A stretch of 54,344 nucleotides of DNA, taken from positions 1-54,344 of the forward strand of contig VGIQ01000004.1 of the NCBI GenBank assembly GCA_016867835.1, written 5' to 3'. Shown here piece after piece: positions 6,414 to 54,344 of this stretch (within the stretch, counting starts at the first letter, position 1; every line of letters starts with the position of its first letter). The position numbers and the translations under genes were made by a program. Source of the DNA: Calditrichota bacterium. Lineage in GTDB: Bacteria > Electryoneota > AABM5-125-24 > Hatepunaeales > Hatepunaeaceae. The notes beneath the pieces were generated by a model. The model saw only the letters and a program-made list of their open reading frames with translations, was not told where the DNA came from and searched no databases.

Positions 6414-6465
6414 ACGGTGGGCATCACGACTGTTAATGGGTGCAATAATAGTGGTATTTATCAGT

Positions 6466-6513
6466 GGGACAGACATTCCTGCCTGTCCTATGGACGGACA
6501 AGAATGTCCGTCC
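6466..6513. repeat. Twin-hairpin element, family R2
   Basis: gggacagacattcctgcctgtcc + tat + ggacggacaagaatgtccgtcc. Same architecture as 504-550, with paired substitutions that keep both stems. Confidence 0.75.
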
Positions 6514-6558
6514 TACTGATACTACTATATGGCGCCCCTATTAATTATATCACGAGCC

Positions 6559-6599
6559 GCAGTATTACCTTGTTGCGTCCCCCCGCTTCGTGGGGGGAG
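6559..6599. repeat. Partial copy (one arm) of the ~138-bp R3 element
   Basis: gcagtattaccttgttgcgtccccccgcttcgtggggggag matches the first ~40 nt of 26874-27012, including the C6/G6 hairpin. Confidence 0.6.
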
Positions 6600-6627
6600 T
6601 ATTGGATATAATCCGCATCTTTTTGAT

Positions 6628-8596: not shown

Positions 8597-8732
8597 ACTA
8601 CTTGGTGCCGTTAGTTCTTGTCTTCTCCCCCCTGCTTCGCGGGGGGAGATAAAAGGAGGGGCAATATGGGATTGCACTTCTACCCCCCTATAGTCCCCCC
8701 GCTGAGCGGGGGGACAAAACAAATGATACTGC
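8597..8732. repeat. ~138-bp structured repeat R3, copy A (inverted relative to copy B at 26874-27012)
   Basis: The reverse complement aligns end to end with 26874-27012, with about nine differences by eye. It contains the hairpins tccccccgctgagcgggggga and ctcccccctgcttcgcggggggag. Confidence 0.85.
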
Positions 8733-10207: not shown

Positions 10208-10292
10208 GAGCGAGGCGAAGGCAGTTCAACCTGCCGTTGCATTCCCGGAGGGTGGACGGGGGCGTCTGCCCGGCTAAAAGAGTTGCCTTGGA

Positions 10293-10370
10293 GGGCGGAC
10301 ATTCCTGTCCGCCCTGAGATATCCTTCAATTTCCTTGCCTCGTGGCAGGCGGACGAGGCGTCCGCCTGCC
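10293..10370. repeat. R2-related hairpins
   Basis: gggcggacattcctgtccgccc (10293-10314) and ggcaggcggacgaggcgtccgcctgcc (10344-10370). The left flank cttggagggcgg is shared with the copy at 504. Confidence 0.7.
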
Positions 10371-10517: not shown

Positions 10518-10536
10518 TCACCAGTTTCCTGTTGTT

Positions 10537-10620
10537 GCCAGTCCCCTGACGCCACTAGCCCTCCGTCGCTGCCAGTCCCCTGTCGCCACTAGCCCTCCGT
10601 CGCTGCCAGTCCCCTGTCGC
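10537..10620. repeat. Tandem 17/34-bp repeats directly downstream of the ychF stop
   Basis: gccagtcccctgacgcc actagccctccgtcgct gccagtcccctgtcgcc actagccctccgtcgct gccagtcccctgtcgc. Confidence 0.75.
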
Positions 10621-11703: not shown

Positions 11704-11792
11704 ATGATGTCCTTTCGTGGCTGGCGGATGCCCTCGACCGCCAGCCCAATTCGGGGGGACGAGGGCGTCCCCTACATATTAGACGCAGTCGT

Positions 11793-11915
11793 CATTCCCG
11801 CGCAGGCGGGAATCCAAGCAAGCCAAATCAAGGATGGATCCCCGTCTTCACGGGAATGACCAAACGTCTTCATTCCCGCGCCGAGCCTGCCTCCAGCAAA
11901 GGCGCAGGCGGGACT
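11793..11915. repeat. Cluster of CATTCCCGCG...GCGGGAAT-type palindromic repeats (family R4)
   Basis: cattcccgcgcaggcgggaatcc; atccccgtcttcacgggaat; cattcccgcgccgagcctgcc...ggcgcaggcggga. Related copies lie at 27064-27134. Confidence 0.65.
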
Positions 11916-12050: not shown

Positions 12051-12323
12051 TTACCGGACGCTGGAGCGGAACTCCTTGCCCGGGACGAACTTCGGCACCT
12101 TCTTCGCCGGTATTTTGATTTTGGCGCCGGTGGCCGGGTTGCGACCCGGTCGCGCCTTGCGCTTCAGGACCCCGAAACTCCCGAAGCCGACCATCGACAC
12201 TTTGTCTCCCTTGGCAACCGCGCGCATGATCGTGTCGGTGAACGCCTTCAGCATCGCTTCGGCGGTCTTCTGTGTCGCGCCCGACTTGGTCGCGATCGTT
12301 TTGACGAGATCGGTTTTGTTCAT
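12051..12323 (-). CDS. hup: HU-family nucleoid-associated DNA-binding protein
   Basis: 90 aa from ATG 12323. MNKTDLVKTIA...GDKVSMVGFGSFGVLKRKARPGRNPATGAKIKIPAKKVPKFVPGKEF is the canonical HU/IHF fold signature. Confidence 0.95.
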   Translation of the reverse strand: MNKTDLVKTIATKSGATQKTAEAMLKAFTDTIMRAVAKGDKVSMVGFGSFGVLKRKARPGRNPATGAKIKIPAKKVPKFVPGKEFRSSVR

Positions 12324-12404
12324 ACGCTTTCCAGTATAACGGACAGACCAGGGTGGCGCGGCATCGTAAGGCCCTCTTTGCCGGGGGATGCAGCACCAAA
12401 AGGC

Positions 12405-12434
12405 AATATAAGTCGAACCTTTAGGGTCTGTCAA
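12405..12434 (-). promoter_or_regulatory. Putative sigma-70 promoter of hup
   Basis: The minus strand reads TTGACA (12434-12429), 18-nt spacer, TATATT (12410-12405). Confidence 0.5.
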
Positions 12435-12492
12435 GGGCTGCGGCCTTTTCCGCGCGAAAAAAGGAGGGCTTGAAGAATCCCCATTTCCCGTC

Positions 12493-13103
12493 GCGTAGCG
12501 GCGGATTCCGATCCGCCGAACGGATGAAGGCGATTCGCGTAGCGGCGGATAGGGCGATAGTTTGTGGTGTCAGGTGTCTTCACCTGACACCCGCCGTCGG
12601 GTGGGGACACCCGACGGCACAATGAATCCGCCGAAATGATGAAGGCGATACGCGTAGCGGCGGATTCCGATCCGCCGAACGGATGAAGGCGATTCGCGTA
12701 GCGGCGGATAGGGCGATAGTTTGTGGTGTCAGGTGTCTTCACCTGACACCCGCCGTCGGGTGGGGACACCCGACGGCACAATGAATCCGCCGAAATGATG
12801 AAGGCGATACGCGTAGCGGCGGATTCCGATCCGCCGAACGGATGCGGGCGATTCGCGTAGCGGCGGATAGGGCGATAGTTTGTGGTGTCAGGTGTCTTCA
12901 CCTGACACCCGCCGTCGGGTGGGGACACCCGACAGCACAATGAATCCGCCGAAAGGATCGGGCGATTCGCGTAGCGGCGGATTCCGATCCGCCGAACGGA
13001 TGCGGGCGATTCGCGTAACGGCGGATAGGGCGATAGTTTGTGGTGTCAGGTGTCTTCACCTGACACCCGCCGTCGGGTGGGGTCACCCGACAGCACAATG
13101 AAT
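12493..13103. repeat. Tandem array of about 4 units of 159 bp, each made of three or more hairpin modules and including the twin-hairpin REP-like element
   Basis: The REP core gtggtgtcaggtgtcttcacctgacac starts at 12564, 12723, 12882 and 13040 (periods 159, 159, 158). The sequence between the cores is also repeated, with few substitutions. Confidence 0.9.
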
Positions 13104-13127
13104 TTTCGAATGAAGAACGCCAAAGGC

Positions 13128-13156
13128 TTGACTTGTGCTCCGGCTTTCCTTAACTT
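13128..13156 (+). promoter_or_regulatory. Putative sigma-70 promoter of the large T9SS cargo gene
   Basis: TTGACT, 17-nt spacer, TAACTT. A GGAG Shine-Dalgarno lies before ATG 13220. Confidence 0.35.
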
Positions 13157-13219
13157 TAGGCGCTTTCGGATCCGGATTCCACGATCATTAACGATCGAGT
13201 CCATATAGAGGGAGTACGT

Positions 13220-13519
13220 ATGCCTGCCTTCAAGCCGGCGGCTCGTGCCGCCCGGATCGCGGCAATCCTTTCCTGCCTGTTGCCGCTAACGCTTTATTCT
13301 GCAGTTGTTACCGAGGAAGGCTCGCTGCTTGAGTTCTTCTCCGGCGAGGGTGTATATCAGGGCGCCTACGACAACTGGATCAGCCACACCGTCGAAGCCG
13401 ATCAGGTCGGCTGGCCGCTCAATTTTGCCCCCCCGAACTCGACCGCGAGACCAACGGCTTCGGGACGTTTCGCCTCATCGACGACCTCCCCAGCCCGCAG
13501 CAAGTCCTCGCCGACCTAA
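13220..13519 (+). CDS. N-terminal fragment (signal peptide plus start of domain 1) of the large T9SS cargo protein; reads out of frame after the C7 tract at 13428-13434
   Basis: Signal peptide MPAFKPAARAARIAAILSCLLPLTLYSA. ...QGAYDNWISHTVEADQ matches ...ATAYDNWVSHISEGIAQ of the internal repeat in ORF 13537..16878. Homology stops at the C7 tract. Confidence 0.7.
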   Translation: MPAFKPAARAARIAAILSCLLPLTLYSAVVTEEGSLLEFFSGEGVYQGAYDNWISHTVEADQVGWPLNFAPPNSTARPTASGRFASSTTSPARSKSSPT

Positions 13520-13536
13520 ACGCCATAGCCGCGGCG

Positions 13537-16500
13537 TTGCTGGCTAATGACCCTGAAGGAGCCGACGCCATTCGCGCGAGCGCGTGGTTTGCCAACTACT
13601 TCGAGGTGATTCGTCTGACCGACGGGAACAGCGCCTACCTGATGCTGCGCGAAGTGCTTAATGACAACTACTTCGATGACAACGGCACCCCGGACGATGC
13701 GACCGATGACGTGCGCGGCAGTTTCGATCTCGGCTGGGGGCTGCTGGTAGTGAAGGTGAACGCTCTCCACCCGGCGGTCGCGGTTCAGGTCGTCCATCCA
13801 TCGACCGACTTCATCTCTCCGCACGTTGCACTCGATGCTTTTCTGACCCTCGACGCCGGAACGTTGATGGTGAGCGGCGTCTCGCGCAACGCTGCCTGGT
13901 CGGGGCAGACTTACGATTCTGACTCATCGCTCTCGGATCCGTCGCGAAACGGACGCACCGCGCTGCAGGAGTGGAATCTGGCGATGCTCAGCGCCCGCCC
14001 CGGGACGTGGTCGATTCAGGTGCATAGTTACAACGCCTACAACTCGAACGGCACCCCGGCGCACGTCGGCGTCAACTCGGTGCAACTCTCATGGGAGCGC
14101 GAGAACCGGGCAGATCCGAACCTGCCGATGATGAGTTGGGACCACAATGACCTGATCAGTTTGACGCCCGACCCGGCGGTTCCGCAGAGTGAAGCCTGGC
14201 CCTTCGCAGCGGTCGGAATCGGATCCTACTACACCGCCTACTATCCCGGCAACTACAAGTGGCGCGGCCAGACGACCATTCCCAACAACGTCGATCTGCC
14301 CGGGACCGCGTCAAACTGCCAGATGGTAGCGTCGCATGTAGGGCATCACTTCACCTATGATCTCGAGAACTGGCTCCATATGGAACTCGACGAGTTCCCC
14401 GACGTGGCTGCAGCGACCGGGATGTCCATTGCGGAGTTCTACGGCTACACCGGGCCCGGCTCGGGCGTCCCGACCTGGCGCAACTTTCAAGCCGTGGTTC
14501 ACTACTACCGCCCAATCTTTACCGCTGCCCGAGCCTGGCTCGATCAGGCGCCCGCAGTGCCGTCGCTGGTGCAGGAGAGCGCTTCATTCGACAACTTCTA
14601 TATGGGCAGCACTGCTGGAGCGACGGCTTACGATAACTGGGTGAGCCACATTTCGGAAGGGATTGCCCAAGCCGGCTACAACGACCATGGACCGGCGCAA
14701 CTCGACCGGCAGACGAACGGCTTTGGCCGTTTCGAGGTGATCAATTCCGAAATCGGCGGTGATGTCGTGCTAAAGGTGTTGAAGGAGGCATCCCGGCGGC
14801 TCGTGACCGGCGATGAAGCAGGAGTGCGGTATCTGCTGCGCAACGCCGGACTCGGCACGAGGTATCAGTTGGTGCGTCTCACGGATGGCGATGCGACCTA
14901 CCTGATCCTGCGTGAAGTCCTGAATAACAACTATTTCGACGACAACGGCACGGAGACGGCCGCAGACGATGTTCAGGGCAGTTTCGACCTCGGCTGGGGA
15001 CTGTTTGCCGTTCGTCTCGACGCCCCCCGGGCGCAGATCATTATCGAAGCGCCGCATCCATGTGACGACTACGTCTCGCCGGCGCTGGCGCTCGACGCCT
15101 TTCACACCCTTGGCGCCGGAGTCCTGATGGTCAATGGCGCCGGCCGCGAGGTTGCCTGGACGGGAGTGACTCCCTACACCAATTCCAAGTCGCTTTCCGA
15201 TCCGACCCGCAACGGGCGCACCTGGTTCAATGTGATGCACCAGGCGGCGGTCGATCTGCTCGATCAGGAGTTGACGATTCAGGTGCATAGTTACGACAGC
15301 GACGGACATCCCAACAGCCGCTGTGGAGAAATCTCCGCCGCCGACGACTACTATCCCAATGCGCCGCTGATGGATGCCGGGACGCACTTCGATCTGGTCA
15401 GTTTGACGCCGCTCTACCCGGTCCCGGCTAATTCGATCGGCGCCGGCAATCATGCTGCCGTCCGGGTCGATGATTACTACGGCGTCTATTACGGCGGCGG
15501 ATACCGCTGGAACAACGACAACAACATCGTCATCTCGAACTACATCGAGCAGCCCGGATTCGGCTCCAATCAACAGATGCTCTACTCCCATGCCGGACAC
15601 AACGCCCAGAGCGACCCGGAAAACTGGCTCCACTTCGAACTCGACGAGTTCCCCAACGTCATCACCGAGAACATTATCTCGTTCTATGGCGGCGCGGATG
15701 CGGTTCCTACCTTTGCTGACTTCACAAACGAGGTGCAGTTCTTTCATCCGATCTTCGACGCCTTGGAGCGCTACTTCCAGGGCCCCGGAGAGCAAGTGTT
15801 AACGATTGCGCCATCATCCGAGCAGACGATCATCGGCACCCGGCAGGGGAGTCTTGCCGAGGTCTCAGCAAGCGACAACGGCTATGAGGTCCTGACCGAA
15901 GTCGTCTCGGGCGGCCAGCCTGCTCGGCGGTATAGTTACCTCGAGCACATCTGGACCTTCAGTTTGACCGGCTATGACCTCAGTCTGGCAGTCGAAGCGT
16001 TCCATAACAGCAACAACGAGAACGACCACTTTGTCTTCGCCGGGTCGTTCGACGGGCAGAACTATACCGAACTGCTGACCGTGACCAAGGTTGCAGATGA
16101 CAACACACCCCAGGTGGTTGCCATCAACGGCTCCGCAACGGGCAGTTTCTACCTCCGGGTGCGCGACACCGACCGAACGCAAGGCCGCACCGGGCTTGAC
16201 CGCCTCTCGGTCGATCATCTCGCGCTCACTTACACCGTCGGTGAGGCACCGGCAGATCAGTATATGGCTGTGGCAGGGATTGCGCTATCGTCAAGAGTTG
16301 TGAAGCGCAATACGACGGTAACGGGCATTGTTACCATTCAGTCCGAGAACGACAACCCGGTGCCGGGAGCAGTCGTCTCGGCGCGCTGGAGCGGCATCTA
16401 TTCGGCCAACGTCAACGGCACGACGGATGGCAACGGGCAGGTGTCGTTTGTAACGCCCCAGATCCGGGACGCCAGTGGCGATATCGTCCTGACCGTGCTC

Positions 16501-16878
16501 GACGTCGTCAAGGAGGGACTGACCTACGATCCCAACCTGAATGCCGTCTCGAGCGCAACCTTGCGGGTCGGCAATCAGGGCGGCAGCATCGCTACAGGTC
16601 CGGACATGCCGCAGGTTTATGCCATCGGCAGCGCCTTCCCGAACCCGTTCAATGCGAGTGTGAACTTGCAAGTTGCGCTGCCTGAGGCGGCTCTCTTCCA
16701 CCTTGCGCTCTACGACATGCAGGGAAGAAGGGTAGCGACGCTGCTCGAGGGGGTTCGACCGGCCGGGTGGCACCGGGCGGTCTGGACGGCAGGAACGTCC
16801 CCGGCGGGGAACTATGTGGTGGTGCTGCGGGCAGGTGAACGCATCCGTGCCACGCAGGTCATTACCTTGACGAAGTAG
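13537..16878 (+). CDS. Large secreted protein: two tandem ~390-aa hydrolase-like domains, beta-sandwich domain, Ig-like domain, T9SS C-terminal sorting domain (this frame is open from 13333)
   Basis: Internal duplication (RLTDGNSAYLMLREVLNDNYFDDNGT.../RLTDGDATYLILREVLNNNYFDDNGT...; HPSTDFISP...IQVHSYN / HPCDDYVSP...IQVHSYD). The C-terminus AFPNPFNASVNLQV...LALYDMQGRRVATL...GNYVVVLRAG...ITLTK is a T9SS CTD. Confidence 0.85.
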   Translation: MLANDPEGADAIRASAWFANYFEVIRLTDGNSAYLMLREVLNDNYFDDNGTPDDATDDVRGSFDLGWGLLVVKVNALHPAVAVQVVHPSTDFISPHVALDAFLTLDAGTLMVSGVSRNAAWSGQTYDSDSSLSDPSRNGRTALQEWNLAMLSARPGTWSIQVHSYNAYNSNGTPAHVGVNSVQLSWERENRADPNLPMMSWDHNDLISLTPDPAVPQSEAWPFAAVGIGSYYTAYYPGNYKWRGQTTIPNNVDLPGTASNCQMVASHVGHHFTYDLENWLHMELDEFPDVAAATGMSIAEFYGYTGPGSGVPTWRNFQAVVHYYRPIFTAARAWLDQAPAVPSLVQESASFDNFYMGSTAGATAYDNWVSHISEGIAQAGYNDHGPAQLDRQTNGFGRFEVINSEIGGDVVLKVLKEASRRLVTGDEAGVRYLLRNAGLGTRYQLVRLTDGDATYLILREVLNNNYFDDNGTETAADDVQGSFDLGWGLFAVRLDAPRAQIIIEAPHPCDDYVSPALALDAFHTLGAGVLMVNGAGREVAWTGVTPYTNSKSLSDPTRNGRTWFNVMHQAAVDLLDQELTIQVHSYDSDGHPNSRCGEISAADDYYPNAPLMDAGTHFDLVSLTPLYPVPANSIGAGNHAAVRVDDYYGVYYGGGYRWNNDNNIVISNYIEQPGFGSNQQMLYSHAGHNAQSDPENWLHFELDEFPNVITENIISFYGGADAVPTFADFTNEVQFFHPIFDALERYFQGPGEQVLTIAPSSEQTIIGTRQGSLAEVSASDNGYEVLTEVVSGGQPARRYSYLEHIWTFSLTGYDLSLAVEAFHNSNNENDHFVFAGSFDGQNYTELLTVTKVADDNTPQVVAINGSATGSFYLRVRDTDRTQGRTGLDRLSVDHLALTYTVGEAPADQYMAVAGIALSSRVVKRNTTVTGIVTIQSENDNPVPGAVVSARWSGIYSANVNGTTDGNGQVSFVTPQIRDASGDIVLTVLDVVKEGLTYDPNLNAVSSATLRVGNQGGSIATGPDMPQVYAIGSAFPNPFNASVNLQVALPEAALFHLALYDMQGRRVATLLEGVRPAGWHRAVWTAGTSPAGNYVVVLRAGERIRATQVITLTK

Positions 16879-26847: not shown

Positions 26848-26873
26848 TGGTTGTTATATTCATATTGATGAGC

Positions 26874-27012
26874 GCAGTATCATCTTGTTTCGTCCCCCCG
26901 CTCAGCGGGGGGACTACAGGGGGGTAGAAGTGCAACCCCATATTGCCCCCCCTTTTATTCCCCCCCGCGGAGCAGGGGGGAGAAGACAAGAACTAACTGC
27001 ACCAAGTAGTAG
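26874..27012. repeat. ~138-bp structured repeat R3, copy B
   Basis: Aligns with the reverse complement of 8597-8732. Hairpins tccccccgctcagcgggggga and tcccccccgcggagcagggggga. Confidence 0.85.
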
Positions 27013-27220: not shown

Positions 27221-29656
27221 TCACCCGGTTCCCCGTCCCGTAAGCCAGCCCCAAAGGGTCGGCTTTCTCCAGTCAACTTCCCGCCATTCTCCCCCCGCCG
27301 CTTCGAAGAGTAATGCACCGGTTTCGGCAGTCTGACGCACCTCCACCCCTCTCGCTCTAAGACGCGCAAGCACTTTCCGACTAACGGAATACTTCCCGCC
27401 TTCGTCCCGTCCGGCTTGTTGGATCACTGCCAACCTTGGCGCGACCGCCGCAAGAAACTCGTCTGATGTCGAGGTTGCTGAGCCGTGATGAGACACCTTC
27501 AAGAGTCCAGCCTCAATATCGAGACCGCTTTGAAGCAGGGCGCGCTCGCCGCGAGCCTCAATGTCGCCAAGGGTTATGAGGCGAAGCCTGCCATATTCTC
27601 CCGTATCGATGCTCAAATGGAGGCCCAGCGATCCGTCGTTGTCGTCCCACCCGGCAATATTCTGTGGCGGAGCGACGACCTTTAGTTCGCAGTTGTCGTC
27701 AAGACCGGCTATATCTATCCCGCGCTCTGCATACTGCCAGCCTATGCCGCGGCGCCGTCCCAACCTCTCTATCCTCCGCCAGGTCTTCGAAGAAGACACC
27801 GCCTCCGGCATCAGAATCGTCGCGACCGATACTTGCTTTATCACTGCTCGCGCTCCGCCGATATGATCGGCGTCAAGGTGACTGAAGACCAGGAGATCGA
27901 GGCGCTCGATGGCACGACTTCGCAGATAGGAGGCGACCGGTCCCGGCGACCGGCTCGGCGATTCCGGCCCGCAATCGACCAGAATTCGACGCCCTGCCGG
28001 TGTCTGCCAGAGTTGAGCGTCGCCGTGACCGACATCGAAGAACCATACCCGGAAGTTGGACGACCCGGCAAAGAACTGATCCGCAACGACAATCGAAGTT
28101 ATCATAAGCAGCGTTATTATCCAGCGCTGCATTGCACGCTCTTTAGCGATAATTGGCCACAAGATCATAATCATCATTACAGCAACTGCCAGCGGCGTCA
28201 GGTGCATAGTCCAGACTGGAGCGCCCGAGGCGAAGAGTTCGCAGAGCAACTGCCACAGTGCCAGCACTCCATTGGCGCCTTCAGCCAAAAGCCGTCCGAG
28301 TGGCAGGTAGATCAGGCTTCCGAAGATCGCCGCCCACATACCCGTAAAGGCGAAGCCAAGCAGCGGCACTGCGACGAGGTTATAGAGCGGTGCGCCGACC
28401 GGCACCGCACCGAAATGATGCGAAAGTAGAGGTGACGTGAATAGACTCGCCGCCAGCGATATCCCCAATGCCGACCAGACCCATAAAGCGAATCCACGCG
28501 GACGTTGCGACATCGTGGAAAGACCCAGCCAGCGATTATGAATCAGCAGAATGCCGGCGGTTGCAGCAAACGAGAGTTGCGTTCCGGTGTCGAAGAGTTC
28601 ACCCGGACGCAGGATCAGGAGGAACATGCCGGCTGCGCCTAACGCGTTCAAGGTAGGTGTCCATCGTTTCAAGATGATCCCACCGACAAGAAAGGATGCC
28701 ATCAGTCCGGCGCGCAGCGTCGAACCGCGATCGGGAATAAGCCAGAGATAAATCCATAGGAAGAGCAATGCCAAAGCGCCCCGCCGTGCCGGTGGCAACC
28801 GCAGCAGCCCTCCGGTCAAGTAAAAGATCGCCGTCATGAACCCAACATGGAGGCCCGACAAAGCGAGAAGATGCGACAAACCGGTATCCTGCAGGTCGCG
28901 CGTCAACGCTGGATCCAAATGGCTTCGGTAGCCAATCAGGAGGCTCTTCCAGAGCGCTTTATGCGGCTCACCAAGGTCGCTTGAGAGTCTATGGATGCCG
29001 TTCTGTAGGTCATAGCGCAGGCGAGCCAAGCGATCTGGTGCCTTAATGGAAATCGAGTCTGAAGACGTCTTCCTAAGACGCCCATTCATCAGCCCGATAA
29101 AGCCATGCCGGGTTCGATATGACGCCAGTTCAAAGTCGCCTGGATTGCGCCGCGAAGGGTGGGATGATAATGTTCCGCTTACTGAGAGACGCTCGCCTAA
29201 CTTCGGAGCCTCTTTCAGGCCGGACAGGTGGAGCCAGACCTTGCGATCTGATAGCGCTTCCGCTTTCGGTGATGATGAAACGTCAACGATCCGCGCCGGG
29301 AACGAATAGCCTCTTGAACGCTGAACCGGCTGATCGAGTACTTCAACTTGTGCAATTAGCCGAACCGGGCGAAAGTTGCGCTCCATCGGAACGGCTTTGA
29401 TCGAGGCAGCGCCCGCTGCGACGAGACCGATTAGCGCAAAGCCGGTTGCGGTGGAAGCGCCTCTTGGCAGGCGAGAAGCGAACCAGGAGAGGATGAGGAA
29501 CGATGCAGCAAGGCAGGCGAGGGTAGGGAATCCAATGTCGATCCAGTAGCCTGCGGCGATCCCCAAGGCGAGGAAGACTGCGGCTTTAACGGCAGGCAGG
29601 ACGATCAGCGGTGGAAGCAGGCGGGTGGGATGGGTTTCCCGAGTATCAAGTATCAA
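27221..29656 (-). CDS. comEC: DNA-uptake channel protein ComEC/Rec2 with C-terminal metallo-beta-lactamase domain
   Basis: 811 aa, polytopic competence domain, then FFDVGHGDAQLW...SHLDADHIGG...VSHHGS. The only upstream in-frame start (TTG 29656) lies inside a heptamer array, so the start is uncertain. Confidence 0.9.
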   Translation of the reverse strand: MILDTRETHPTRLLPPLIVLPAVKAAVFLALGIAAGYWIDIGFPTLACLAASFLILSWFASRLPRGASTATGFALIGLVAAGAASIKAVPMERNFRPVRLIAQVEVLDQPVQRSRGYSFPARIVDVSSSPKAEALSDRKVWLHLSGLKEAPKLGERLSVSGTLSSHPSRRNPGDFELASYRTRHGFIGLMNGRLRKTSSDSISIKAPDRLARLRYDLQNGIHRLSSDLGEPHKALWKSLLIGYRSHLDPALTRDLQDTGLSHLLALSGLHVGFMTAIFYLTGGLLRLPPARRGALALLFLWIYLWLIPDRGSTLRAGLMASFLVGGIILKRWTPTLNALGAAGMFLLILRPGELFDTGTQLSFAATAGILLIHNRWLGLSTMSQRPRGFALWVWSALGISLAASLFTSPLLSHHFGAVPVGAPLYNLVAVPLLGFAFTGMWAAIFGSLIYLPLGRLLAEGANGVLALWQLLCELFASGAPVWTMHLTPLAVAVMMIMILWPIIAKERAMQRWIITLLMITSIVVADQFFAGSSNFRVWFFDVGHGDAQLWQTPAGRRILVDCGPESPSRSPGPVASYLRSRAIERLDLLVFSHLDADHIGGARAVIKQVSVATILMPEAVSSSKTWRRIERLGRRRGIGWQYAERGIDIAGLDDNCELKVVAPPQNIAGWDDNDGSLGLHLSIDTGEYGRLRLITLGDIEARGERALLQSGLDIEAGLLKVSHHGSATSTSDEFLAAVAPRLAVIQQAGRDEGGKYSVSRKVLARLRARGVEVRQTAETGALLFEAAGGEWREVDWRKPTLWGWLTGRGTG

Positions 29657-29699
29657 GTATCAAGTGTCAAGTATCAAGTAACAAGTGTCAAGAAGCAAG
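29644..29699. repeat. Heptanucleotide tandem array (TATCAAG-like x 8)
   Basis: tatcaag tatcaag tatcaag tgtcaag tatcaag taacaag tgtcaag aagcaag. Confidence 0.9.
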
Positions 29700-29751
29700 A
29701 TTGATAAAGTGTTGCTATTCACTTCTTCGTTGCTTTGTGGTGTCTGTCGTT

Positions 29752-43185: not shown

Positions 43186-43950
43186 ATGCGTTATCTTCAA
43201 GATGTGAGCACCACTCCGGCGCATCTTGAAGCAGGGAGGCCGGCCCGTTCGGGACAGTTGATACTCGAGCGGCGCAGGCGGCTTTTGGATAAGATGGTGC
43301 CGGAATGGGCAGCATCGCGGGTTTTACTCGATCTGGGCTGCGGCAACGGGGCTCAGACTCGACTCCTGTCCGGACCCGGACGCACCCTTGTCGGTATCGA
43401 CAGCGCCCGGATCGGCGATCTCGAAGAGATTCCCGACCGATCTGCATTCGTCTATGTCCGCGGCAGCGCGGGGGATTTGCCGCTGCGCAATGAAGCGCTC
43501 GACGGCGCGGTCTCGTTCGAGGTACTCGAGCATGTGCCCGATGACCGTGCTGCTGTGCTGGAGGTGGCGCGAACGCTAAAGCCGGGCGGGTTCTTTCTTT
43601 TCACGGTGCCTAACAAATGGTGGGTATTCGAGTCGCACGGAGCGGTGGTGCCGGGACTTAACTTCCTGCCTTGGAACCGTATACCGTTCGTCTCTTACCT
43701 GCCAGGCCACTTGCACGAGCGGATTGCCCGGGCTCGTATCTATACGCTGCGTCGAGCGCTCGAACTGGCTCGAAGCAGCGGACTTGAGCCGCTTGCGAGC
43801 GGCTATATCACGGCTCCACTCGACGTTCTCCCTAAAGGCCTCTTGCGCCGCATCCTGCGCAGCACCATCTTTAGAAACGATACGACTGCACTGCCAGTTT
43901 TGGCGGTGAACCTCTATGTCCTGGCGGCTAAGCCACTTCAGCCGGATTAA
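43186..43950 (+). CDS. Class I SAM-dependent methyltransferase
   Basis: VLLDLGCGNGAQT (motif I) and ALDGAVSFEVLEHVPD. ATG 43186 is chosen to avoid overlap with the divergent gene. Confidence 0.8.
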   Translation: MRYLQDVSTTPAHLEAGRPARSGQLILERRRRLLDKMVPEWAASRVLLDLGCGNGAQTRLLSGPGRTLVGIDSARIGDLEEIPDRSAFVYVRGSAGDLPLRNEALDGAVSFEVLEHVPDDRAAVLEVARTLKPGGFFLFTVPNKWWVFESHGAVVPGLNFLPWNRIPFVSYLPGHLHERIARARIYTLRRALELARSSGLEPLASGYITAPLDVLPKGLLRRILRSTIFRNDTTALPVLAVNLYVLAAKPLQPD

Positions 43951-43952
43951 GT

Positions 43953-44140
43953 CATTGGATGTGGTGTCAGGTGTCCTCACCTGACACATACCGTCGGGTG
44001 GGGACACCCGACGGCACAATTACCTCTATATTAAGGCACTGGATGTGGTGTCAGGTGTCCTCACCTGACACATACCGTCGGGTGGGGACACCCGACGGCA
44101 CAATAAACGGGACATTGTAACGCCGCCATCCTGACGGCAC
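43953..44140 (+). repeat. Two tandem twin-hairpin REP-like elements plus a 36-nt conserved tail
   Basis: cattggatGTGGTGTCAGGTGtcctCACCTGACACataCCGTCGGGTGgggaCACCCGACGGcacaat at 43953-44020 and 44038-44104. Tail aaacgggacattgtaacgccgccatcctgacggcaca. Confidence 0.9.
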
Positions 44141-45284: not shown

Positions 45285-45348
45285 ATGTGCTCAAGGACTC
45301 AACCTCATGACGCAATATAGGCTGATTAGACTGGAGAGAATCACTAAA

Positions 45349-45408
45349 GTGGTGTCAGGTGTCCTCACCTGACACATACCGTCGGGTGGGGACACCCACC
45401 GGCACAAT
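45349..45408 (+). repeat. Twin-hairpin REP-like element overlapping the 5' end of cheW
   Basis: gtggtgtcaggtgtcctcacctgacacataccgtcgggtggggacacccaccggcacaat. Confidence 0.9.
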
Positions 45409-45883
45409 AAATAGAGTCTTCGACAAGGACGGCCAGCCCAGTCTGAAAGGGATCATTGCGGGGGAAGCGGTCATTCTGCCGCTCGCGGGAGTTGTTGCGG
45501 TGCAGCGGGTCGGCCGGATCGTCGCGCTGCCGGGATCGCCGCCCTGGCTTCCCGGGCTGATCTATTTTCGCGGCGGCATCGAAGCCGCTATAGACGCCGG
45601 GCGCCTCTGGGGACAGGGCAGTTTTCAGCCCGGCGACTCAGCGCGTGCCGTCCTGATCGAAGATAGCGGGCTAAGGGGGGTGTTGCTCTTCGATGACCTT
45701 CAAGAGTTGCTCGATATCGCTGCGCTTCCCTTTGCAGGCGGTGAACTGGCATCCCTGCCGCATCCTCCCGGCACCGCCGGAAGGCTGGTGACGAATCCGG
45801 CTGAGGATCATCCCCCGACCGCGCTGCTCCTGTCGTCCACGCAGTTGTTGCAAGGGCTTATGATGGGAAGAAAAGGAATATAG
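45359..45883 (+). CDS. cheW: CheW-like coupling protein
   Basis: ...EAVILPLAGVVAVQRVGRIVALPGSPPWLPGLIYFRGGIEAAIDAGRLWG...VLIEDSGLRGVLLFDDLQELL is a CheW-domain pattern. The only canonical in-frame starts (GTG 45359, GTG 45386) lie inside the REP element. Confidence 0.7.
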   Translation: MSSPDTYRRVGTPTGTINRVFDKDGQPSLKGIIAGEAVILPLAGVVAVQRVGRIVALPGSPPWLPGLIYFRGGIEAAIDAGRLWGQGSFQPGDSARAVLIEDSGLRGVLLFDDLQELLDIAALPFAGGELASLPHPPGTAGRLVTNPAEDHPPTALLLSSTQLLQGLMMGRKGI

Positions 45884-45886
45884 AAT

Positions 45887-46064
45887 CATTGGATGTGGTG
45901 TCAGGTGTCCACACCTGACACCTGCCGTCGGGTGGGGATACCCAACGGCACAATAAACGGGACATTGTGACGCCGCCATCCTGACGGCACAGGAAATCAT
46001 TGGATGTGGTGTCAGGTGTCCACACCTGACGCCTACCGTCGGGTGTGGCACCCGACGGCACAAT
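45887..46064 (+). repeat. Two twin-hairpin REP-like elements separated by the conserved tail
   Basis: Copies at 45887-45954 and 45997-46064. Tail aaacgggacattgtgacgccgccatcctgacggcaca at 45955-45991. Confidence 0.9.
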
Positions 46065-46092
46065 AACCTTATTCTTGCCGGAGGAAACACCC

Positions 46093-54172: not shown

Positions 54173-54225
54173 TGATCGATGTCCAATGCAAGACCTTTCC
54201 CATCATTCCAGGTGGCCAGCGCGTT

Positions 54226-54260
54226 CCAAAATCCCAAATCCAAAATCCAATATCCAAGAT
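54226..54260. repeat. Heptanucleotide tandem repeat (CCAAAAT-like x 5)
   Basis: ccaaaat cccaaat ccaaaat ccaatat ccaagat. Confidence 0.75.
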
Positions 54261-54261
54261 T

Positions 54262-54344
54262 ATTGTGCCGTCGGGTGTCCTCACCCGATGGTCTGTGTCA
54301 GGTGAAGACACCTGACACCACAACTAGTCATTGTGCCGTCGGGT
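54262..54344 (-). repeat. Twin-hairpin REP-like element in inverted orientation, plus the start of a second copy at the window edge
   Basis: attgtgccgtcgggtgtcctcacccgatggtctgtgtcaggtgaagacacctgacaccac is the reverse complement of the family consensus. cattgtgccgtcgggt restarts at 54329. Confidence 0.85.

Follow-up and report, generated by a model that had tools for sequence, protein, structure and literature searches.

Between two divergently transcribed genes of an uncultured lake bacterium lies an array of 159-bp units, which is probably a BIME-like cluster of repetitive extragenic palindromes (REPs), that is, repeated DNA and not a gene. Each unit is built around a pair of adjacent hairpins, H1 and H2. 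Copies of this H1/H2 dimer are dispersed over intergenic sites of the window (the whole stretch of DNA analyzed, an entire contig of 54,344 bp), where they are clustered with various linkers. The array is an ordinary kind of repeat, and nothing about it indicates a new RNA class, RNA gene or system.

Anatomy and setting of the array

Tandem Repeats Finder placed the array at 12492-13103 with a period of 159, 3.9 copies, 97% matches, no indels and a score of 1133, in agreement with the about four head-to-tail units of a preliminary description made from the sequence. Four copies were also recovered by a repeat search. The units at 12492-12650 and 12651-12809 are 100% identical over 159 bases, and because of this identity the last round of amplification appears to be recent. 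Elsewhere the units vary, with both substitution pairs listed in the preliminary description present (gatgaagg/gatgcggg and cgacggcac/cgacagcac). The array and its neighbors comprise the following features.

12492-13103, plus strand: tandem array of 3.9 units, period 159 bp, the last unit 158 bp
12495-12518, plus strand (also 12654-12677, 12813-12836 and 12971-12994): small hairpin 'a', with a GTAG tag, an 8-bp stem CGGCGGAT/ATCCGCCG and the loop TCCG
12539-12633, plus strand (also 12698-12792 and 12857-12951): split hairpin 'b', its TCCG loop replaced by a 75-nt block
12567-12590, plus strand (also 12726-12749, 12885-12908 and 13043-13066): hairpin H1, GTGTCAGGTG-tctt-CACCTGACAC, preceded by tGTGG
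12594-12617, plus strand (also 12753-12776, 12912-12935 and 13070-13093): hairpin H2, CCGTCGGGTG-ggga-CACCCGACGG, followed by CACAAT
12051-12326, minus strand: gene for an HU/IHF-family DNA-binding protein of 91 aa (Pfam Bac_DNA_binding)
12405-12434, minus strand: promoter-like site of the HU/IHF-family gene, TTGACA-18-TATATT (11/12), 58 bp from the left edge of the array
12025-11997, minus strand: terminator-like hairpin past the HU/IHF-family gene
13220-16878, plus strand: gene for a large secreted protein with a T9SS type A sorting domain (TIGR04183)

The two core hairpins are 24 nt each, with 10-bp stems and 4-nt loops, and are separated by three bases. The twin-hairpin core noted in the preliminary description held up in pattern searches, as H1 (GTGTCAGGTG/CACCTGACAC) has 10 matches in the window and H2 (CCGTCGGGTG/CACCCGACGG) has 9, with 0.00 expected for each. 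One mismatch is found in each of the H2 copies at 12912-12935 and 13070-13093, and across nine distinct copies of the dimer 96.7% of stem cells are paired. Conservation extends from (T)GTGG to GGCACAAT-n-A, a block of ~62-70 nt. The tag of H1 is always (T/A)GTGG; that of H2, read on the other strand, is GTGC and departs from GT[AG]G. In both hairpins the last tag base doubles as the first stem pair. Read on the other strand H2 opens TGTG-CCGTCGGGTG, like the TGTG-GTGTCAGGTG of H1, so that the tags align. Three stem positions distinguish H1 from the reverse complement of H2, and at each of them the other arm carries the compensating change. H1 and H2 are diverged inverted copies of one palindrome, with short GTG(G/C) tags facing outward. 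Because the tags align and the stem differences are compensated, the pair joins a REP to an inverted REP that belongs to a different subtype, an arrangement that PMC3733652 calls a head-to-head heterodimer. Membership of H2 in the CGTC super-family of REPs was rejected, as its CGTC is paired in the stem and it is without the A-T first pairs described there.

The rest of the unit is an 88-bp linker made of two 44-bp sub-repeats, each consisting of ATCCGCCG, 20 nt, GTAG and CGGCGGAT. The preliminary description had placed a GGCGGAT-tccg-ATCCGCC hairpin and a duplicated GCGTAGCGGCGGAT motif in each unit; we recovered 4 matches to the former (0.65 expected by chance, at <=2 mismatches) and 8 to the latter within the array. 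Small hairpin 'a' has the form of a GTAG-type REP, with an unpaired canonical GTAG, an 8-bp stem and a 4-nt loop. In split hairpin 'b', GTAG plus CGGCGGAT (12539-12550) is followed by the block (12551-12625), which holds in order 16 nt, H1, CCG, H2 and CACAATGA, and then by the 3' arm ATCCGCCG (12626-12633). The last split hairpin, at 13015-13102, has GTAA and is without the 3' arm. The unit length follows from this layout (44 + 44 + 71 = 44 + (44 - 4 + 75) = 159), and in the predicted fold the arms of the split hairpin pair around the dimer. One can thus see the array as a head-to-tail row of eight small hairpins, with a dimer in the loop of every other one. Within the 54-kb window the GTAG linker hairpin occurs in the array only. 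Its unitig depth is 2.5x that of the flank for a segment present twice, leaving little room for copies with the same flanks elsewhere. The linker hairpin is a candidate REP, with a status that rests on one locus.

At its left edge the array grades into decayed unit-like sequence, GAATCCCC...CGCGTAGC, and at its right edge into CACAATGAAT-tttc-GAATGAAGAACGCC, as expected if amplification carried flanking DNA along. The two genes around it are those proposed in the preliminary description, which had put the repeat between a hup promoter and a T9SS cargo gene. The hup-like product matches both HU and IHF NCBIfam models, all under their equivalog cut-offs. Neither it nor the product of the contig's last gene had an identical protein on record. 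In the rightward product the T9SS sorting domain is at the C-terminal end (TIGR04183, 25.9 bits against a cut-off of 23); its gene is split in the window by a frameshift at a C7 run (13428-13434) and has its start codon 116 bp from the right edge of the array.

The array region is non-coding, as the preliminary description had held. Its further statement that a length of 159 = 3 x 53 keeps an antisense reading frame open did not stand: that frame (12431-12940) is not open across the whole array because the last unit, at 158 bp, is one base short. The antisense frame had no homologue but itself among 5.8 billion predicted proteins, and no further arrays were found with it as bait. The frame break and the lack of homologues together rule out a coding repeat. 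A CRISPR array, also dismissed in the preliminary description, is ruled out since the whole 159-bp period is repeated with no unique segment to serve as a spacer. One unit compared with plasmids and phages by blastn gave no match. A simple scan of both strands found no sigma-70-like promoter and no terminator-like site in the units. Intrinsic terminators were ruled out, the units having no T run, and a Bacteroidetes-type TAnnTTTG promoter per unit was rejected, as the sequence GATAGTTTG is one base short. A retron or other RNA linked to a reverse transcriptase was likewise rejected, with no reverse transcriptase among the neighboring genes scanned.

Junctions, copy number and dispersed copies

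The copy number comes from a short-read metagenome assembly, in which two units identical over 159 bp are beyond what short reads can count, and the contig itself terminates in a repeat cluster. Both circumstances would suit an assembly artefact, in which a repeat truly single at this site was expanded or its copies were mis-joined. The region is present in eleven lake-water metagenome runs, however, and independently assembled Logan unitigs from four runs hold the left edge (to 12520) and the right edge (from 13053). The unit-to-unit junctions at 12594-12680, 12753-12814 and 12904-12996 are spanned by Logan unitigs of separate runs. With both edges and the junctions found in independent unitigs from at least four runs, the head-to-tail arrangement is real. 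Short Logan contigs carrying the YchF gene stop at the array.

Read depth also argues against an artefact. In run X1 (flank depth ~12) the segment common to all four units, with 4 copies in the window, has 4.8x the flank depth, and a junction segment with 2 copies has 2.8x. The junction at 12904-12996, with 1 copy in the window, is at 1.5x flank in X1 against 2.5x in X2 (unitigs only). These depths are 1.2-2.5 times the prediction from four units. Relative to single-copy flanks, unitigs specific to the array are 2.5-4.8 times as deep. Four units are therefore a lower bound and the assembly has under-counted rather than over-counted them; the array likely has about five. An assembly artefact, which the preliminary description had named as grounds for dismissing the array, is exceedingly unlikely.

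A covariance model of the dimer, built from the nine distinct copies and run without filters over the window, found ten full copies (88-102 bits) plus one cut by the contig end, and the family has no others there. Four of them are in the array and seven, counting the cut copy, are elsewhere. Together the copies occupy 6 loci in 54 kb, with one locus inverted. Those outside the array are as follows.

43950-44113, plus strand: tandem pair of H1/H2 dimers at a period of 84, joined by a different linker
45338-45417, plus strand: single H1/H2 dimer in the gap between the hybrid kinase and CheW genes, its H2 stem damaged
45884-46073, plus strand: two H1/H2 dimers 111 bp apart in the gap between the CheW and MCP genes, beginning directly past the CheW stop codon
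54253-54344, minus strand: H1/H2 dimer in the opposite orientation (full copy 54253-54332) and the start of a second

The pair at 43950-44113 starts at a methyltransferase stop codon, upstream of the hybrid kinase/receiver gene. Next comes AAACGGGACATTGTRACGCCGCCATCCTGACGGCACASGAA, a linker motif of 46 nt that includes a decayed H2 arm. It is found again at 45953-45998, and its presence at two loci makes the structure a mosaic. The contig-end cluster follows a type II/IV secretion ATPase gene. Its dimers are joined by the short linker CACAATGA-CTAG-TTGTGG with a period of about 68, and the contig breaks inside it. The unitig with the CTAG junction has 2.7x (X1) and 4.2x (X2) the flank depth, which implies several more copies of that junction. 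Further linkers are 26 nt (44015-44040) and, in run X4 only, 23 nt. The cluster period accordingly differs by locus: 159 (x3.9) in the array, 84 (x1.9), 111 (x2) and about 68 at the contig end. The H1-H2-linker-H1-H2 order is constant in all clusters. Variants of loop and spacer are uniform inside a locus and different among loci, being TCTT/CCG in the array, TCCT/ATA at 43.9-45.4 kb and TCCA/CTG-CTA at 45.9 kb.

Every dimer copy falls outside the genes that a domain search identified. Of the four non-array loci, three begin 0-64 nt past the upstream stop codon in a row of same-strand genes, and most of the dispersed dimers share the orientation of the surrounding genes. Unitigs show more loci with other flanks, including at least one H2 standing alone beside unique sequence; loose ends with a lone H2 are at 12752 (X1) and 44075 (both runs). 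The unitig depth of H2 is 244 against 12 for the single-copy flank in X1 and 152 against 9.5 in X2. At about 20 times the flank, this implies tens of copies per genome, about half of them in this contig.

We looked for traces of how the core moves and for its presence in other genomes. None of the 23 window ORFs scanned matched a RAYT or other Y1 transposase in Pfam or NCBIfam, and no direct repeat that could be a target-site duplication flanks the core at any of the six loci. The exact twin-hairpin pattern is absent from both GTDB representative genomes and JGI metagenome contigs (0 matches each), and neither collection includes the lineage itself. By YchF, the nearest relatives are at 55% identity (GTDB) and about 44% full-length (JGI). 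The best GTDB relative has hup adjoining ychF with no repeat upstream of hup, though it is too distant to weigh much. The dimer covariance model found nothing in 48 loci of YchF relatives, which are too distant for a test of conservation, nor did a loose pattern of the core in 54 relatives' loci.

Other REP-like families were seen in the window, among them another set of twin hairpins with the same architecture and a CGTC-tagged textbook palindrome at 11790-11817.

Origin of the array and alternative readings

The BIME-like reading would account for the array as follows. The mobile core would be the ~62-70-nt head-to-head dimer with its GTG(G/C) tags outward, which may have spread to several intergenic sites through single-stranded DNA, moved by a REP-associated Y1 (HUH) transposase as in E. 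coli REPs and BIMEs. At the array locus a dimer would have been placed in the loop of the small GTAG-tagged hairpin, itself repeated every 44 bp. The resulting 159-bp composite may then have been copied head to tail by replication slippage or by unequal recombination between repeats. Loop insertion followed by amplification seems the most economical history, as one way of reading the layout. The likely effect would be that 0.6 kb of palindrome-rich DNA separates the divergent promoters; this spacer could extrude hairpins or cruciforms, and nucleoid proteins or gyrase may bind to it. The number of units in the array probably varies between strains. A locally amplified REP cluster was one of the candidate roles in the preliminary description, and it is the one favored by a core that is palindromic, intergenic, dispersed in both orientations and present in tandem with varied linkers.

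A multi-copy structured RNA, also proposed there, would have the 159-nt unit form a closed multi-branch structure. The units would be made as individual small RNAs, or together as a long structured 5' leader belonging to the T9SS-tailed gene or to an alternative hup transcript. Consistent with this, a unit plus the start of the next folds to a four-way junction closed by a 10-bp stem, GGCGGAUUC/GAAUCCGCC (-92.2 kcal/mol, z = -6.8 against shuffles), and the dimers oriented like their surrounding genes are probably transcribed. However, the opposite strand folds equally well (z = -7.1), as does single-stranded DNA (z = -8.2), because any set of inverted repeats must do so. No Rfam family reached its gathering score across the window, and a search of 12300-13300 at E up to 10 gave only chance-level matches (E 0.29 to 8.5), such as Rhizobiales-2 (21 bits, cut-off 40), CRISPR-DR29 (19 bits) and a plant miRNA. 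Covariation among the copies, a check suggested in the preliminary description, gave 0 pairs changed on both sides in the nine distinct copies. Where a copy departs from the pattern, a single mismatch disrupts the H2 stem, on either strand, and the copies are too alike to inform on RNA structure. The outer stem and linker are missing from every other copy of the core, the units contain neither a promoter-like nor a terminator-like site, and no RNA sequencing run was found to contain the region. A structured RNA is thus quite improbable. In a bolder version the unit, bounded by GGCGGATTC/GAATCCGCC, would be a functional four-way-junction module, as RNA or extruded single-stranded DNA, serving as a sink or sensor for HU/IHF, with its copy number tuning both hup and the secreted-protein gene; we regard this as highly improbable.

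The array could, in addition to its REP identity, have been co-opted as a protein-binding or topological element, a platform for an HU/IHF-family protein or gyrase that insulates the two divergent promoters or tunes them by copy number. Divergent transcription generates negative supercoiling, which favors hairpin extrusion, and the array is close to both the hup -35 hexamer and the downstream start codon. In E. coli, REPs and BIMEs reportedly act as topological insulators and are bound by IHF, gyrase and DNA polymerase I (PMC3333891), and by this analogy a similar role here is plausible. The proximity of hup may nonetheless be coincidence, as other copies are in an unrelated chemosensory operon, and the nearest relative keeps hup-ychF without the repeat. 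Such a role is unlikely. A MITE moved by a DDE transposase, with the array a tandem duplication around it, would fit the low copy number, the failure to see a RAYT, and a dimer that is, as a whole, an imperfect palindrome of ~65 nt whose ends are related (ATTG..TGTG at the left, CACAAT at the right). Against it, each half is a complete hairpin, at least one unitig has H2 without H1 beside unique sequence, and the six loci show no target-site duplication. Tandem clusters with varied linkers are moreover typical of REPs and BIMEs, and no transposase is among the ORFs scanned. A MITE is very unlikely.

The BIME-like reading has its own difficulties. The copy number is low and half of the copies are in one contig, no RAYT was found in the 23 ORFs, the tags overlap the first stem pair, H2 carries GTGC, and the stems are perfect. 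The array is also between divergent genes. REPs usually sit shortly past stop codons in rows of same-strand genes, with divergent gaps the least common position (PMC3733652).

Comparison with known repeats

Like REPs, which are GC-rich palindromes of 20-40 nt with a short loop, H1 and H2 are short-looped palindromes of 24 nt with dispersed extragenic copies in both orientations. REPs usually number more than 100 copies per genome (PMC2817692), against about 20 here by unitig depth; families of 20-100 units or fewer have been accepted as REPs (PMC3733652). Like BIMEs, the clusters have regularly spaced REPs of alternating orientation joined by linkers, and their tandem copies are uniform per locus and variable among loci.

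The closest parallels in E. coli are BIME-2 and atypical BIMEs. A BIME-2 consists of a REP, an inverted REP, a short linker and flanking sequences, in multiple tandem copies conserved per locus, and its copy number varies between E. coli strains (Ton-Hoang et al., PMC3333891). The REP-associated Y1 transposase cleaves and joins such DNA in vitro and has been proposed to assemble the tandem copies (PMC3333891). Both in E. coli and here inverted pairs of two REP subtypes are found in tandem with linkers at extragenic sites, with near-identical copies per locus, linkers and numbers that differ among loci, and mosaic linker motifs. There is no sequence relation between them. The 10-bp stems here are perfect, whereas the E. 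coli enzyme requires a stem mismatch in the REP (PMC3333891). The tag is GTG(G/C) rather than GTAG, and the copies number tens rather than hundreds. The pair here has a 3-nt spacer and the 88-bp linker itself holds two hairpins. No cognate transposase was seen among the 23 window ORFs.

Several likenesses are found with the GTAG-tagged REP families (Di Nocera, De Gregorio and Rocco 2013, PMC3733652). These include heterodimers in head-to-head orientation whose partners are 1-5 bp apart, clusters in which dimers and their flanking DNA are repeated in tandem, a GTGG tag variant in Opitutus terrae, and several families per genome. Thermomicrobium roseum REPs are inserted in small GC-rich palindromes, and one family there occurs in blocks at few loci. 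Unlike those families, H2 carries GTGC, and the H1/H2 stems and loops match none of the consensus features compared. The host is also far from the species listed (YchF <=55% to GTDB representatives).

As in the RAYT-moved REPINs of Pseudomonas, the spreading unit appears as a doublet of inverted REPs, with singlets that look like remnants. In REPINs the spaced REPs pair into one long hairpin, whereas here each REP is a full palindrome. Because the halves are alike at only 22-24 of 38 positions and each is a full palindrome, H1 and H2 should fold separately, and in the predicted folds, both RNA and DNA, they remain separate hairpins. The array was accordingly not classed as a REPIN. BOX elements of Streptococcus pneumoniae and the MIRU-type repeats of mycobacteria are also modular and intergenic, with an internal module that varies in tandem number between strains. 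They differ from the array in sequence and architecture and are without a core of tagged palindrome dimers.

With at least four REP/BIME-type families in one 54-kb contig, from an uncultured lake bacterium without a close relative in the collections searched (YchF 55% at best, in GTDB), the known range of these repeats is extended. The array is a tidy case of nesting, in which one palindromic repeat sits in the loop of a second and the composite was amplified, and it could serve as a variable-number strain marker for this population. Such clusters break short-read assemblies, as at the end of this contig, and their unit numbers are under-counted. The amplification of a composite unit, considered unusual in the preliminary description, is what BIME-2 displays: tandem REP pairs with linkers, uniform per locus and variable between strains (PMC3333891). 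Every structural feature of the array has a published precedent.

Further hairpin families in the window

Besides the first family, the H1/H2 dimer of two head-to-head REP hairpins, the window carries further hairpin families, two of which are these.

498-551, 6461-6514 and 10287-10318: second twin-hairpin family
6558-6601, 8607-8650 and 26873-26916: third repeat family

The second family, GGGCGGGCA-ttcc-TGCCTGCCC-taa-GGGCGGACA-agaa-TGTCCGCCC, has an architecture like that of the first, with 9-bp stems, 4-nt loops and a 3-nt spacer, and is scored weakly by the first-family covariance model (25 and 21 bits). At 10287-10318 one hairpin stands alone. The third family is a hairpin, TCCCCCCGC-ttcg-(G)TGGGGGGA, whose 5' flank (CGCAGTAT..CTTGTT) is conserved.

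The T9SS reading frames

The second-family copy at 498-551 lies in frame within an ORF on the plus strand (54-764), inside the T9SS sorting domain of that ORF. The sequence there, NPFNDQATVTIDL-[GGRAFLPALRADKNVRPP...]-VRLSLYALDGREV, has the look of a REP inserted within a gene. The acidic GDDEG linker of the same ORF is coded by a 21-bp tandem repeat (361-435).

The T9SS-tailed gene beside the 159-bp tandem array is broken by a run of seven C (13428-13434) into 13220-13519 and 13537-16878. In the Logan contigs of X1 and X2, independent assemblies of two lake-water metagenome runs, this run is eight C long at full depth, and the gene regains a single reading frame. Either the contig has a homopolymer error here, or the seven-C run is a strain or phase variant.

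Short tandem repeats and relatives of the lineage

Three other short tandem repeats were recorded.

10536-10620: 34-bp repeat, 2.5 copies, 98% matches
29642-29704: AGTATCA-type heptamer, about seven times, alternatively scored with a 21-bp period
54225-54257: heptamer TCCAAAA, 4.7 copies

The 34-bp repeat directly follows the stop codon of ychF, which is on the minus strand, and the AGTATCA-type heptamers fall between two large minus-strand ORFs or at their ends. The TCCAAAA heptamers adjoin the REP cluster that lies in inverted orientation where the contig ends. In a unitig of another locus, H1 has a similar TTGGGATTTGGATT stretch beside it.

Using YchF as the marker protein, we found no close relative of the lineage among GTDB representatives and JGI contigs. 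The best match, at 55%, was one GTDB representative, which keeps the hup-ychF adjacency. Acidobacteriota, Latescibacterota and Gemmatimonadota MAGs followed at 40-51%, and the JGI contigs gave nothing better than the 55% of the GTDB representatives.

A CGTC-tagged palindrome

One further repeat carries a CGTC tag.

11790-11880: site of the palindrome CGTC-ATTCCCGC-gcag-GCGGGAAT-CCA

Partial copies adjoin it. Unitig depth at this site is 275-1010 versus about 12 in the flanks, so the repeat is common to many lake genomes. With an 8-bp stem whose first pair is A-T, a 4-nt loop and a 3-nt tail, the palindrome is a textbook fit to the CGTC-tagged form in the REP families of Di Nocera, De Gregorio and Rocco (2013; PMC3733652).
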